Shown here one piece after another: positions 3,471 through 46,312 of a stretch of DNA of 46,312 nt. The notes under the pieces are model-generated. The model worked only from the letters and a program-made list of their open reading frames with translations. It was not told the origin of the DNA and searched no databases. This DNA comes from a virus: IMG/VR virus record IMGVR_UViG_3300013016_000007, one strand, 5' to 3'. How positions within the stretch are numbered: the first letter of the stretch is position 1; the number at the start of each line of letters is the position of its first letter. Position numbers and translations under genes: made by a program.

Positions 3471-4205
3471 ATGAATGATATTAAGATTTTTGAAAATTAT
3501 CAGTTTGGAGAAATAAGAGTTAGAAAAGAAAATGATCAAATTTGGTTTGTTGCTAAAGATTTATGTAATGCATTAGATATTTCTCATTATAGAGATGCAG
3601 TTTATAGATTAGATGATGATGAAAGGGGGTCGCTAATAGTCGACACCCCTGGAGGAAGACAAGAAATGTCAGCAGTAAATGAACCAGGAATGTATTCTTT
3701 GGTTTTGAAAAGTAGAAAACCAGAAGCGAAAAAATTTAAGCGCTGGATAACTCACGATGTAATTCCTGAAATCAGAAAGACTGGACAGTATGCTGCTAAA
3801 CCTAGATCAGTTGAGGATCTTATTATTATGCAGGCTGAATCAGTTAAGGAATTGAAACAAAAGGTTGATCATCAGGAAAAGCAAATTAAGTCAATGAAAA
3901 ATTCGCTTATTCACACGGATCAAGATTGGCGTGACTGGGCTAATAAACAACTTAACACTATAGGCTACCAAATGGGAGAAAGATATAGAGAAGCTAGAAG
4001 AATGAGCTACACTATATTAGAAAACAGAGCGCGCTGCCGTTTAGATGTTAGATTATCAAACCTAAAAAACAGGCTAAGAGAAGCTGGAGCGACTGAAACA
4101 AGAATTAACGATGCAAATAAATTAGATGTTATTGGTGAAGATCCCAGGTTGAAAGAAATATACAAATCAGTTATAGAAAAACTTTCTATCAAGTATTCAG
4201 TCTAA
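3471..4205 (+). CDS. Phage antirepressor, Bro-N domain family
   Basis: N-terminus FENYQFGEIRVRKENDQIWFVAKDLCNALDI...RKPEAKKFKRWITHDVIPEIRKTG is typical of Bro-N/antirepressor proteins. Confidence 0.75.
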   Translation: MNDIKIFENYQFGEIRVRKENDQIWFVAKDLCNALDISHYRDAVYRLDDDERGSLIVDTPGGRQEMSAVNEPGMYSLVLKSRKPEAKKFKRWITHDVIPEIRKTGQYAAKPRSVEDLIIMQAESVKELKQKVDHQEKQIKSMKNSLIHTDQDWRDWANKQLNTIGYQMGERYREARRMSYTILENRARCRLDVRLSNLKNRLREAGATETRINDANKLDVIGEDPRLKEIYKSVIEKLSIKYSV

Positions 4206-40327: not shown

Positions 40328-40645
40328 ATGAAAGGATTTCCTAAAAAATTAAAGACAAAAAAAGATTATGAAAATATCGTCGATGATTTCGGCTACACTC
40401 AAAAAGTAAAAGAAGCTTATCAGGCATTGTTAGAAACTGATCAGCATTATGTATTTGATAAAGAACTGGCAACTGAGGATGAAAGGACTGGCCCGCTCCC
40501 TGATTATAAAATAATGAAAGAAGATGATCAGGAAACCGAGACGGTTAAAATTGTTCAGTATAAATTAGTAGATAACCCTGACTCAAAGCTCAAAGAGTTA
40601 GGATTTACAGAATCTGAAGTTCAAGAGGTGATTGACTTATGCTAA
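40328..40645 (+). CDS. Hypothetical fiber-module protein
   Basis: 105 aa, acidic. Overlaps the start of the DGR target gene. Confidence 0.5.
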   Translation: MKGFPKKLKTKKDYENIVDDFGYTQKVKEAYQALLETDQHYVFDKELATEDERTGPLPDYKIMKEDDQETETVKIVQYKLVDNPDSKLKELGFTESEVQEVIDLC

Positions 40646-41685
40646 GTGTAGTAGGAGTAGATAGTCCTGCTTTTTACAACGCTGAAGGAAACATAGAAAA
40701 GACAACCGGAGTCCAGGGAGTAGATATTCCGGCCCTGGCATTAAGAATTAATAGGCAGAACTTAAAAATTGAATCAGCATCAGCACTAACTGCCTCAGAC
40801 AATGATGGCAGTTTTTCTAGTTTTGCGATGGGTACAGATTATTATATCTATGCCTGTCAACCAGCTGATGGTATTGAGCCAGACTTTGTGCTTTCGGCTA
40901 ACTCTACTTATCCAGATACAATTCCTTCTGGAGTTACGCCCAGTGCTGATAACACTCGGAAGATTGGTGGCTTTCATTATGGCCGGGTAAGGAACAGTTC
41001 TACAGCTTCTGATGTATCAGAAAGCATTGTACCTAACTCAGTTTGGGACCTTGTTAATCGTCCTAAATGTTCCCCTGAGGGGATGGCTAAGGTAGGAAAC
41101 CTTTGGGTAGATATTTATCTGGCATCTGATGATGGTAACGGTGGTGTTGAATCAAAATATAATGCGACACCTATAACCGGAACTGAAGGCTTAAGCTGGT
41201 ACAGTTTCGCTGAAAGGTTTGCCAAAGTTGATAAGAGGATGGCATCAATGTCAGAGTGGACAGCATTAGCTCAGGGCAGTCCTCAGGGTAACGATGGTGA
41301 CAATGTCAATGCCTGGTCTGCTACCAGCAACAGCAGTAGAACTGCAACTGGTACTGTAACCAATGCTATCAGTAATTATAATATTGTCGATTGTGCTGGT
41401 AATGTGTATGAGTGGTTGGATGAACTTTCTATTAGACAGGATAGTTCAGTGACTACCGACTGGCGCTGGTATGATCCCGATACTGACTTTGATGAAAGCA
41501 TCGAAAGCAATTGGAATGAGTTAGGAGATTTATATCTACCTAATGATAATGGTCTTACTGCTTTCAGAGCAGGTGGCGGCTGGGACTATGGTGTCCGCTG
41601 CGGTGCTCGTTCGGTCGACGTGGGCTACCGACCGTGGGGCGTGTTCTCGCTCCGCGGGTCTCGTGGTGTCTGTGATCCTCTGTAA
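40639..41685 (+). CDS. DGR target protein: receptor-binding tail fiber with C-terminal variable (C-type-lectin-like) region
   Basis: 348 aa. The last ~38 codons (AGGGWDYGVRCGARSVDVGYRPWGVFSLRGSRGVCDPL) form the VR. It is the last gene of the fiber module. Confidence 0.88.
   Translation: MLSVVGVDSPAFYNAEGNIEKTTGVQGVDIPALALRINRQNLKIESASALTASDNDGSFSSFAMGTDYYIYACQPADGIEPDFVLSANSTYPDTIPSGVTPSADNTRKIGGFHYGRVRNSSTASDVSESIVPNSVWDLVNRPKCSPEGMAKVGNLWVDIYLASDDGNGGVESKYNATPITGTEGLSWYSFAERFAKVDKRMASMSEWTALAQGSPQGNDGDNVNAWSATSNSSRTATGTVTNAISNYNIVDCAGNVYEWLDELSIRQDSSVTTDWRWYDPDTDFDESIESNWNELGDLYLPNDNGLTAFRAGGGWDYGVRCGARSVDVGYRPWGVFSLRGSRGVCDPL
41569..41685 (+). repeat. DGR variable repeat (VR) with IMH at its 3' end
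   Basis: nt 41570-41674 align without gaps to 42087-42191 (offset 517). There are 18 mismatches, all at TR adenines. The A-free GC-rich block CGGGTCTCGTGGTGTCTGTG is identical in both copies. Confidence 0.93.
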
Positions 41686-41767
41686 TTCGTGATTTGATAA
41701 TCTGTCTTTTTATAAGGTGTGAATACTTATCAAAAATTTTACAATACATCAAAAAGTATATGATTTT

Positions 41768-42064
41768 ATGGTTTGGTTTTTCCCGATTGTAGATAACTTT
41801 CCGAAGTACGAAAAATTTGTACTTTGTACTCAAATTAAGAATTCAATACTTGATATCTCAAAAATTATTATTGAAGCAAATAAATCTAGAGGTAGCAAAG
41901 TTAGATTTCTGCACCGGGTAGATGTCAGACTTGAACAATTAAGAATGCTGATCAGATTTTCTCACAAAAGAAGATATTTAAATGATTCTAAATATGAAAA
42001 TGCATCTAAAAAAGTCAATGAAATAGGCCGCATGCTTGGAGGTTGGATCAAGTCGTGCGATTAA
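41768..42064 (+). CDS. avd: Accessory variability determinant (Avd), four-helix-bundle family
   Basis: ...VYDFMVWFFPIVDNFPKYEKFVLCTQIKNSILDISKIIIEANKSR... matches the Avd pattern. The frame is open from 41723 and the conserved helix 1 begins upstream of the first ATG (41768). Confidence 0.8.
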   Translation: MVWFFPIVDNFPKYEKFVLCTQIKNSILDISKIIIEANKSRGSKVRFLHRVDVRLEQLRMLIRFSHKRRYLNDSKYENASKKVNEIGRMLGGWIKSCD

Positions 42065-42085
42065 ATATTTGGGGTTAAGAGCGTT

Positions 42086-42200
42086 ACAGGTGGCAACTGG
42101 AACAATGGTGTCCACTGCGGTGCTCGTTCGGTCAACGTGAACAACCAACCGTGGAACGTGAACTCGAACAACGGGTCTCGTGGTGTCTGTGCTCTTCATG
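42086..42200 (+). repeat. DGR template repeat (TR) with IMH*-like 3' end
   Basis: Non-coding, starting 22 nt after the avd stop. Has 24 adenines in 42087-42191. In the VR frame it reads (ACA) GGT GGC AAC TGG AAC AAT ... with nine AAC codons. Confidence 0.93.
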
Positions 42201-42371
42201 CAAAAATCTTTCAGACAGTAGTGGTTACGGCCACTGCTGCAGTGTTTCTAGAAATGAGGAACAGGCTTTTAATCCCTGCTGAGATACTTTTTAAGTCAAT
42301 CCAGCAAAAAATTTAGATTGCTGGCCAGGCAGCAAGTATTGAAAAATAGAAAGTTGTCACAGTCAGCGACT

Positions 42372-42403
42372 GCCCGTTCTCATTTGAGCGGGCTTTTAAT
42401 TTT
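42372..42403 (+). terminator. Terminator-like hairpin between TR and the RT gene
   Basis: GCCCGTTC (42372-42379) pairs with GAGCGGGC (42386-42393): 8 bp including one G-U pair, 6-nt loop, then TTTTAATTTT. Confidence 0.5.
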
Positions 42404-42432
42404 CACCCACAAATAAAGAAAGTGGTGATAAT

Positions 42433-43545
42433 ATTCCAAAAAAATTTAAAAATTTATATCCTAAAATATATAACTTTTCAAACTTATTAGTTTCTTATGA
42501 AAATGCTAGAAAATCTAAACGATATACTAATCAAGTTCTTGAATTTACTAATCAGTTAGAAAGTAATTTAATCAACCTTCAAAACCAGCTTATCTGGAAA
42601 GAATATTTACCTGGTGAATATCATCAATTCTATGTTTATGAACCTAAGCAGAGGTTAGTTATGGCACTTCCTTTTGAAGATAGAGTGGTCCAGTGGGCTG
42701 TATATAGAAACCTAAACCCTATATTTGATAAAACTTTTTATGAACATAGTTGTGCCTGCCGGATTGGCAAAGGTACTCATTATGCAGCAGACCAGCTGCA
42801 GCACTGGATGAGAAAACTCGACAGGAGCCCAGGGAAAACTTATTATCTCAAAGCTGATGTTGCAAAATATTTCTACAGGATAGATCACAGAACTCTTTTC
42901 GAAATAATCAAAAGAAAGATTGGCTGCAGAGATACTTTAGAGCTGATCTGGAAAATTATCAAAAAAGATGATGGTGAATTTGGGATACATCTCGGTGATC
43001 ATTACTTTGAAAGGGATAAAATTAAAGGAATTGGAATCCCAATTGGTAACTTAACCAGTCAATTATTTGCTAATGTTTATCTAGATTTTATGGATAAATT
43101 CATTAAACATAATTTGAGAGTGAAGCACTATGTAAGATATATGGATGATTTCGTTATCCTGGGAAAATCAAAGAAAGAACTACATACAATTAGACAGGAG
43201 ATAGAAATATTTCTTGCTGATTATCTAAAATTAGAACTTAACAATAAAACTACCGTGGACAATATCTGGAATGGTATAGATTTCTGCGGATATGTTACTT
43301 ATCCACCATATAGAAAATTGAGAAAAAGTACAAAGAGAAAACTGAAAAGGCGGCTTAAATATCTTCAGAAAAAGTATTATAAAGAGGAGGTGGAGATCGA
43401 TGAAATAAATGCCAGTGTTCAAAGCTATTTAGGAATATTAAAACATTGTAATAGCCATAATCTGACAATGTCAGTTATTGGCCAGTTAGAAGATGAAATA
43501 CTTAATCAACTAGATTTAGATGACGTACGAGAACAAAGAAGTTGA
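42433..43545 (+). CDS. DGR reverse transcriptase
   Basis: EPKQRLVMALPFEDRVVQ, YYLKADVAKYFYRIDH, IGNLTSQLFANVYL ([LIV]GxxxSQ), RYMDDFVILG (YxDD). The frame is open from 42400. There is no in-frame ATG/GTG/TTG before 42661, so the start is shown at ATT 42433 (uncertain). Confidence 0.9.
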   Translation: MPKKFKNLYPKIYNFSNLLVSYENARKSKRYTNQVLEFTNQLESNLINLQNQLIWKEYLPGEYHQFYVYEPKQRLVMALPFEDRVVQWAVYRNLNPIFDKTFYEHSCACRIGKGTHYAADQLQHWMRKLDRSPGKTYYLKADVAKYFYRIDHRTLFEIIKRKIGCRDTLELIWKIIKKDDGEFGIHLGDHYFERDKIKGIGIPIGNLTSQLFANVYLDFMDKFIKHNLRVKHYVRYMDDFVILGKSKKELHTIRQEIEIFLADYLKLELNNKTTVDNIWNGIDFCGYVTYPPYRKLRKSTKRKLKRRLKYLQKKYYKEEVEIDEINASVQSYLGILKHCNSHNLTMSVIGQLEDEILNQLDLDDVREQRS

Positions 43546-46158: not shown

Positions 46159-46197
46159 ATGTAAAAATATGGAATGGAACAATCCGGGAACAATTTT

Positions 46198-46237
46198 ATA
46201 GAAAATAAAAATGACCGCCCTTATTAAGAACGGTCAT
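46198..46237 (-). terminator. Rho-independent terminator of tRNA-Leu (right copy)
   Basis: Same hairpin and T-run as at 9-48, inside the att repeat. Confidence 0.7.
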
Positions 46238-46254
46238 CATAGTTGATATAACAA

Positions 46255-46312
46255 TGGTGCCGAAGGTGGGACTCGAACCCACACGGAGTTGCCCCCAACG
46301 GATTTTGAATCC
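46255..46312 (-). tRNA. tRNA-Leu(CAA), 3' portion; the gene continues beyond the window end
   Basis: Same sequence as 66-123: CCA end, acceptor strand, T arm, long variable arm, anticodon loop TTCAAAA. Probably the intact copy, because the left copy lacks a 5' half. Confidence 0.75.

Follow-up and report, generated by a model that had tools for sequence, protein, structure and literature searches.

The viral DNA filed in IMG/VR as IMGVR_UViG_3300013016_000007 (46,312 nt; hereafter the window, to which all coordinates refer) carries a 105-nt direct repeat whose first copy lies in the 3′ end of a protein-coding gene and differs from the second copy only where the latter has adenine. A sequence-only reading of this stretch had taken the pair for the variable repeat (VR) and template repeat (TR) of a diversity-generating retroelement (DGR) with adenine-specific mutagenesis. 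The question raised by this locus is therefore whether it holds a complete DGR that is still at work, and what it diversifies. Homologies to the accessory variability determinant (Avd), the DGR reverse transcriptase (RT) and the target protein Mtd, together with the match of its variable positions to those of Mtd, support that reading. We hold with high confidence that the locus is a complete and active BPP-1-type DGR cassette diversifying an Mtd-like tail-fibre tip protein in a temperate Halanaerobium phage. The anatomy of the cassette, its homologies, the covariation of its RNA and a natural variation limited to adenine sites of the VR were all observed in this analysis.

Adenine-specific variation between the VR and the TR

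The two repeats are located as follows.

41570-41674, plus strand: VR, with the diversified tract at 41578-41654 affecting codons 314, 316, 317, 320, 327, 329, 330, 331, 334, 336, 338 and 339
42087-42191, plus strand: TR, non-coding in situ and invariant, with 24 adenines, 23 of them mutable

The recomputed pairwise alignment is gapless over 105 nt at an offset of 517 nt, and a repeat finder recovered the same direct repeat. The copies differ at 18 positions (41578, 41579, 41584, 41587, 41597, 41617, 41623, 41624, 41626, 41630, 41638, 41639, 41644, 41645, 41650, 41651, 41653 and 41654), all 18 of which face a TR adenine, with no difference at C, G or T and no indel. The VR of the window has G at 10 of these sites, T at five and C at three, while six of the 24 TR adenines are unchanged in it (42088, 42102, 42105, 42135, 42144 and 42148). 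When every adenine was replaced by N, the resulting pattern matched just two places in the window, the VR and the TR (none expected by chance and none found in shuffled sequences); the same scan revealed neither a second VR nor a remote target within the window.

The alignment and the tabulation by TR base reproduced exactly the 18 positions listed in the sequence-only reading, their restriction to adenines and the same six unchanged sites. Its description of the tract boundaries had to be revised. The six adenines that it called retained are indeed A in the window, but five of them vary in other copies, and only 42088 is constant, being A in all seven haplotypes of the same phage. A 19th A-to-G change, which it had considered possible at 41569/42086, turned out to be a fixed difference in the flank, as this position is G in all seven haplotypes. 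Because the five adenines vary elsewhere while 42088 and 41569/42086 do not, the diversified tract comprises the 23 adenines between 42095 and 42171, corresponding to VR positions 41578-41654. For the same reason, with 41569/42086 being G and 42088 always A in the seven haplotypes, the boundary codon is not diversified.

A direct repeat of 105 nt might also be an ordinary duplicated segment, that is, a pair of paralogous repeats driven apart by point mutation or gene conversion, with an adenine bias that reflects chance or composition. Beyond the existence of the repeat nothing speaks for this explanation, and the probability that 18 mismatches would all fall on the 24 adenines among 105 positions is 1.7e-15 (hypergeometric). 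Furthermore, the asymmetry runs one way, with A always in the RT-adjacent copy, and this copy is invariant across assemblies. Adenine-specific VR/TR pairs recur at offsets of 470-680 nt in about 80 related loci, including Halanaerobium, Lachnospiraceae and Nitrospirota prophages. Ordinary duplication was rejected on these grounds (adenine-only mismatches, an invariant TR and recurrence in about 80 loci), and we regard its probability as negligible.

Whether the DGR is active was addressed with loci retrieved by protein identity from public assemblies that carry the exact window protein or close variants. Six loci, which between them carry five distinct VR haplotypes, depart from the window at 4-19 positions apiece. 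These differences all lie at VR sites opposite a TR adenine, and none occurs elsewhere over 7,047 bp (4.6 and 6.0 kb for the two shorter loci). Locus L023 does not differ from the window at all. The TR is exactly that of the window in all seven relative loci that cover it, six of which have a VR unlike that of the window. A further haplotype on a 2,015-bp contig from JGI sample 3300013019 (L111) again differs only at TR-adenine sites. Over the seven distinct haplotypes, all 23 adenine sites (42095-42171) vary and no other site does, with 65% of the adenine cells substituted (G 53, T 33, C 19), and the members of the protein cluster vary at exactly the predicted residues. In a sister lineage, two loci from different JGI samples (L109 and L110) are the same over 5,484 bp save for two adenine sites. 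From VR-only, TR-adenine-only differences among assemblies that share an identical TR, we conclude that the element is active in nature. Scans with the exact pattern for more VR haplotypes or TR copies gave no match in viral_contigs and none in either of two scans of metagenome_contigs; the source metagenomes seem to be absent from these two collections.

The two sites separating L109 from L110, at positions 4003 and 4006, belong to the 3′-most variable codons of the VR, in keeping with a short conversion tract that has its anchor at the 3′ end. The VR of these loci also holds one fixed non-adenine difference, having G where its own TR has T.

As the haplotypes derive from metagenome assemblies, their hypervariability could be an artefact of assembly or sequencing, or could come from recombination among standing variants rather than from retrohoming. 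The comparison of the window with loci L027 and L028 has a mosaic look that recombination or chimeric assembly could yield. However, neither errors nor recombination would single out the sites that face an adenine in a copy lying 517 nt away, and recombination shuffles variants but cannot create them. The haplotype of L027 and L028 was recovered in separate JGI and ENA records, and the stretch in which it varies from the window spans 62 nt, a length that a typical short read, or a large k-mer used in assembly, should exceed. We therefore consider this explanation extremely unlikely as the source of the hypervariability, and retain repeated DGR mutagenesis.

In the mosaic itself, the VRs of the window and of L027/L028 have 14 substitutions in common and differ at four adenine sites (41584, 41638, 41639 and 41645; locus positions 3946-4007), which are flanked on both sides by shared substituted sites. 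Unrelated haplotype pairs have only 2-8 substitutions in common. Neither one conversion tract with a 3′ anchor nor a fresh full-length retrohoming event accounts for this pattern, for which patchy repair of a cDNA:VR heteroduplex, recombination among variants and chimeric assembly are possible origins. It is a tentative and rather unlikely idea, based on one haplotype pair, that in this phage family a retrohoming event may at times alter no more than some of the adenine sites, and these not contiguous. If true, this would allow a working receptor-binding site to be refined stepwise instead of being replaced wholesale.

The repeats end on a shared segment resembling the initiation of mutagenic homing (IMH) element.

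41656-41680, plus strand: IMH-like 3′ end of the VR, consisting of an adenine-free, G+C-rich stretch of 19 nt (GGGTCTCGTGGTGTCTGTG, 41656-41674) followed by divergence

The 19 nt at 41656-41674 equal those at 42173-42191, after which the VR continues with ATCCTC... and the TR with CTCTTC.... The same layout was found in relatives, and by analogy the shared G+C-rich end may function like an IMH.

The 5′ end of the repeats is where the sister lineage departs from the window. Aligned with L002/L004 of that lineage, the window TR shows a gap of 8 nt at the 5′ end, where VR/TR homology is absent as well (window 42083-42095 against L002:4412-4432), whereas the VR/TR homology of the sister lineage runs about 13 nt further 5′ and includes an extra diversified CAC codon. 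Cluster members encode H, R, P or L with this codon, which belongs to their FxAGG motif. Because of the gap and the missing homology, the lineage of the window is without the extra diversified codon.

The Mtd-like target and its variable codons

The gene that contains the VR is described by one feature.

40639-41685, plus strand: target gene for a predicted Mtd-like receptor-binding (tail-fibre tip) protein of 348 aa, with the VR in its C-terminal C-type-lectin-fold domain

The VR ends 11 nt upstream of the stop codon. The target protein matches the Pfam family mtd_2nd (PF21916; E 5e-19, 69 bits against a cut-off of 24.6), and a profile of 66 homologues found the Mtd crystal sequences in PDB with an E-value of 2e-38 over Mtd residues 67-378. 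The family profile was needed for the latter match because a single-sequence phmmer search against PDB sequences missed Mtd and returned only weak EgtB matches. The AlphaFold2 model of the target (pLDDT 90.9, pTM 0.89) had as its best Foldseek matches the five Mtd structures 1yu0-1yu4 (E about 1e-20, TM 0.68-0.73), followed at ranks 6-9 by the DGR variable proteins TaqVP and TvpA (TM 0.29-0.39). In addition, tblastn aligned the target to mtd of BPP-1 at 25.7% identity over 90% of the query, and more than 1,100 homologous Mtd-like proteins were found. By profile, modelled fold and tblastn, the target is thus a homologue of Mtd, and the Mtd profile and the model with its Foldseek matches bear out the C-type-lectin fold that had been suggested for the variable protein from the DNA letters.

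The residues at which the five crystallised Mtd variants differ (344, 346, 347, 350, 357, 359, 360, 364, 366, 368 and 369) have one-to-one partners, in the profile alignment, in 11 of the window's 12 variable codons. In the crystal structures, the receptor-binding site of Mtd lies at the base of its trimer and is formed by the variable residues (PMC2408619). This residue-for-residue match suggests that the variable residues of the target are likewise exposed to solvent. The gene context suggests that the protein may sit at the tips of the tail fibres as a trimeric determinant of tropism.

In the frame of the target, the TR reads TGGNWNNGVHCGARSVNVNNQPWNVNSNNGSRGVC. Nine AAC codons and one each of AAT, CAC and CAA, besides the ACA at the boundary, hold its adenines, and the codon census found no stop codon that can be reached from any of them by adenine substitution. 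The number of potential protein variants is 15^10 x 4 x 5 = 1.15e13. The codon census, the stop-proof design and the estimate of about 1.2e13 variants in the earlier reading were thus all correct on recomputation. Since substitution is biased, 1.15e13 is only an upper bound that actual sampling does not cover evenly; A-to-G alone makes up half of all substitutions across the haplotypes. With bRT of BPP-1, only about eight amino acids attain a frequency of 1% from an AAC codon (PMC12875486). The avoidance of stops by AAC codons is a published hallmark of DGRs: 20 of the 23 mutable adenines of BPP-1 lie in AAC codons, and AAC/AAU codons encode up to 15 amino acids and no stops (PMC12875486). Mtd of BPP-1 has about 1e13 potential sequences (PMC2408619).

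Avd, reverse transcriptase and the RNA around the TR

The cassette is arranged in the order target, avd, TR, a non-coding spacer of 241 nt and RT. Its two other protein-coding genes are listed below.

41768-42064, plus strand: avd, encoding the accessory variability determinant, a four-helix-bundle protein of 98 aa, identified with Pfam and NCBIfam
42433-43545, plus strand: DGR reverse transcriptase of 370 aa, with Pfam RVT_1, the motifs IGNLTSQ and YMDD, and an apparent ATT start

Avd matches Pfam bAvd (PF22296, E 2e-29) and NCBIfam NF033474 (DivGenRetAVD) with 107.9 bits against the curated cut-off of 80. The nearest PDB relative of the RT is bRT of BPP-1 (8ub7, E 1.3e-53), with which it is collinear over residues 3-344 such that residue 3 of the query is residue 3 of bRT. 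In the alignment, the DGR-clade motifs [I/L]GxxxSQ and YxDD are present as IGNLTSQ and YMDD. The score against the group II intron model (132 bits) was far under the cut-off of 300.

The start of the RT gene is unusual. From the stop at 42397 as far as the ATG at 42661, its frame is devoid of ATG, GTG and TTG, while the conserved RT sequence starts at 42433, where the codon ATT stands behind the Shine-Dalgarno sequence GGTGAT (42424-42429). The ATT is kept in L002, L004 and L006, in the last of which it follows AGGAG, and L004 has an in-frame TGA two codons upstream of it. The ATT of the window aligns with the ATG of distant relatives and with Met1 of bRT. A comparison of the RT N-terminus across L002, L004, L006, L029 and L030 indicated that the ATT is conserved in the Halanaerobium-phage clade. 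These features suggest from sequence that the RT has a non-canonical ATT start, which possibly keeps RT levels low. Gene callers yield a shortened RT of 294 aa; the conserved start is in this sense a small annotation lesson, as the callers drop 76 residues.

The same start region could be read as a sign that the cassette is a relic, in which the VR records past activity while the element is now dead, for example through loss of the RT start codon. The lack of ATG, GTG and TTG at the conserved N-terminus and the 294-aa gene calls would agree with this, as would a related Mtd lineage without avd, TR or RT downstream of mtd and with an identical VR in its two contigs (L112 and L007). On the other hand, the seven haplotypes, in otherwise identical genomes, differ at the adenine sites of the VR only, which requires recent and repeated mutagenesis. 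The RT reading frame is intact from the ATT through YMDD and collinear with bRT from residue 3, the ATT and its Shine-Dalgarno sequence are kept in relatives, and the TR, Avd and the RNA helices are conserved. A dead cassette is therefore very unlikely, and the evidence favours a DGR that is still active.

The cassette-less lineage was observed at L112:2386-3432 and L007:3001-4035, both of which encode Mtd homologues. In neither locus does an avd, TR or RT lie downstream of mtd, which in L112 is followed by a 123-aa open reading frame (ORF) and a GH108 lysin. The two proteins agree completely in their C-terminal halves, VR included, but not in their N-terminal domains, one of which is window-like and the other divergent. 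This looks like a VR "frozen" after loss of the cassette, combined with modular exchange of the N-terminus of the tail fibre.

As RNA, the TR and the spacer fold better than shuffled sequence (z = -4.4). The following elements were assigned in this region.

42071-42082, plus strand: 5′ strand of the predicted stop duplex (GGGGUUAAGAGC), which pairs with 42265-42276 and encloses the TR
42190-42199, plus strand: predicted template strand of the template:primer duplex, which pairs with 42254-42263 and has G42189 immediately 5′
42216-42239, plus strand: 10-bp stem-loop with a UACG tetraloop, 25 nt 3′ of the TR, the counterpart of the Avd-binding stem-loop of BPP-1
42254-42263, plus strand: primer strand in the spacer RNA (AUGAGGAACA), with the predicted priming adenosine A42263
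42265-42276, plus strand: 3′ strand of the predicted stop duplex (GCUUUUAAUCCC), which pairs with 42071-42082
42277-42311, plus strand: stem-loop (UGCUG...CAGCA) followed by an A run, directly 3′ of the stop duplex in the minimum-energy fold
42372-42393, plus strand: terminator-like hairpin with UUUUAAUUUU behind it, located after the spacer RNA and before the RT start, kept in L002 and L004

Apart from the terminator-like hairpin, these elements correspond to those of the BPP-1 ribonucleoprotein, in which an avd:Sp duplex termed "cPRT Stop", an Avd-binding stem-loop and priming at Sp A56/TR G117 were described, and tetraloop-capped stems (UNCG, GNRA) occur in 207 of 278 DGRs (bioRxiv 10.1101/2023.10.23.563531). 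Covariation was counted in the 14 sequences with aligned flanks among 30 relatives; over all 30, the alignment of the TR 5′ flank is inconsistent because the TR 5′ ends differ between subgroups. Changes on both sides affect 9 of the 12 pairs of the stop duplex, in which 93% of the cells are paired, and 9 of the 10 pairs of the UACG stem-loop. For the two helices combined (18 of 22 pairs), 89% of the cells are paired, compared with 36-52% when the partner strand is slid. The template:primer duplex has 7 of 10 pairs changing on both sides and 85.6% of the cells paired, compared with 47% or less for a slid partner. None of 500 shuffles reached the covariation score, either for the stop duplex and stem-loop or for the template:primer duplex. 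A42263 and its partner U at 42190 are invariant in 14 of 14 relatives. By analogy with BPP-1, A42263 is predicted to be the priming adenosine and, because the duplex ends in this invariant A42263:U42190 pair, G42189 the first templated base.

The stem-loop at 42277-42311 takes the form UGCC-GNRA-GGCA or UCCC...GGGA followed by AAA in relatives, as seen by eye in an alignment in which its 3′ arm is misaligned between subgroups, and may correspond to the BPP-1 stem-loop with its A-minor adenosines. The terminator-like hairpin reads GCCCG...CGGGC and then TTTTAATTTT, with its T-run reaching 42403; it may set the 3′ end of the TR RNA, or attenuate or limit read-through into the RT. An Rfam search of the whole window at gathering thresholds found no family, and DGR RNAs appear not to be represented in Rfam.

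Upstream of the cassette lie baseplate J, P2-I and tail-fibre genes, and downstream of it a holin and an amidase. An integrase is encoded at 270-1427 on the minus strand, and the window begins and ends with an exact direct repeat of 123 nt (1-123 and 46190-46312), so that it is probably either a whole temperate phage with attachment (att) repeats at its ends or a genome assembled as a circle. By eye, the 123-nt repeat resembles the 3′ part of a minus-strand tRNA gene; an ARAGORN scan found no complete tRNA. The host is assigned to Halanaerobium on sequence grounds, because the 90%-identity cluster of the target holds a protein from the metagenome-assembled genome of Halanaerobium sp. T82-1 and the nearest genomes are Halanaerobium. 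A 105-aa ORF at 40328-40645 overlaps the start of mtd by 7 nt, has no Pfam or NCBIfam match and is kept beside mtd in all close relatives, including L112.

Proposed mechanism and relation to known DGRs

By analogy with BPP-1, the cassette would operate as follows. The invariant TR and its flanks would be transcribed into a structured RNA, and a complex of RT and Avd would bind this TR-containing RNA. An adenosine of the spacer, predicted to be A42263, would then prime cDNA synthesis on the template base G42189, and the RT would copy the TR faithfully except at adenines, where any base may be inserted, until synthesis halts at the duplex 42071-42082/42265-42276. The cDNA would then take the place of the VR, its homologue in the 3′ end of the mtd-like gene, with the shared 19-nt G+C-rich end as a possible anchor. 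As a result, 12 codons in the presumed ligand-binding face of the C-type-lectin domain would be rewritten into as many as 1.15e13 proteins free of stops, and the phage population could thereby explore new host receptors. The priming site, the stop function, the integration step and the receptor-binding role in this scheme are all modelled on BPP-1.

Several points weigh against this account. cDNA synthesis, the priming site and retrohoming are steps that we infer from the analogy. The RT reading frame lacks a canonical start at its conserved N-terminus, and expression hinges on an unproven ATT start. Past the G+C-rich segment, the similarity between VR and TR is weak (4 of 6 bases), and the analogy with IMH/IMH* is partial. 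The window also differs from BPP-1 in that no GC-rich hairpin or cruciform was found 3′ of the VR when 41655-41770 was folded as DNA (-3.9 kcal/mol, z = +0.84). In BPP-1 this post-VR hairpin/cruciform enhances target recognition; among DGRs it is neither universal nor defining.

The closest counterpart among known systems is BPP-1 itself (mtd-avd-TR-brt), which has the same gene order at the same place, the tail-fibre end of a temperate tailed phage. Both cassettes have a homologous target, with the C-termini GSRGVCDPL in the window and GARGVCDHL in Mtd, and both encode an Avd equivalog and a bRT-like RT. The RNA elements of BPP-1 have counterparts in the window as well, namely three helices (stop duplex, Avd-binding stem-loop and template:primer duplex) along with a predicted priming A and a predicted initiating G. 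The mutable adenines number 23 in either system and lie mostly in AAC codons in BPP-1, with about 1e13 potential variants there and 1.15e13 in the window (PMC12875486, PMC2408619).

In contrast to these likenesses, the identity to Mtd is only about 26%, and the host, Halanaerobium, is a halophilic anaerobe of low G+C content rather than a Betaproteobacterium. The spacer from the TR to the RT is longer in the window (241 nt, ending in the terminator-like hairpin) than the 140 nt from the TR to the RT start in BPP-1, and the RT of the window apparently uses an ATT start. The variable Q331 (CAA) of the window stands against the invariant Gly 361 of Mtd, and conversely an invariant Gly of the window stands where the twelfth variable residue of Mtd would fall, a position not visible among the aligned variants.

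Mtd-type DGR phages and prophages of Firmicutes, Nitrospirota and others have adenine-specific VR/TR pairs and RNA elements in common with the window. Chromohalobacter phage YPCBV-1 has a 41% identical protein that is annotated as a DGR protein, and the nearest species-level genomes, H. saccharolyticum and H. salsuginis, are only 47-54% identical. TvpA of Treponema denticola and TaqVP of Thermus aquaticus have a C-terminal C-type-lectin fold with the VR, as does the target of the window, but they match it far more weakly, lack the N-terminal and second domains of Mtd and are not phage tail proteins. No described Halanaerobium DGR was found in the literature, and a megablast search of the cassette against 50,697 phage records gave no near match.

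Known since BPP-1, DGRs with this architecture fill catalogues by the thousands, and categorically the finding adds nothing new to them. Its value lies in being a very clean natural example in an apparently complete 46-kb temperate Halanaerobium phage. The RNA elements seen by cryo-EM in BPP-1 recur in distant Mtd-type phages of Firmicutes and Nitrospirota, where they are conserved and covary, and the comparison yields testable coordinates for the predicted priming site (A42263) and the first templated base (G42189). Because several independent assemblies are identical but for the 23 programmed adenine sites, the diversification of this phage can be read straight from public metagenomes.

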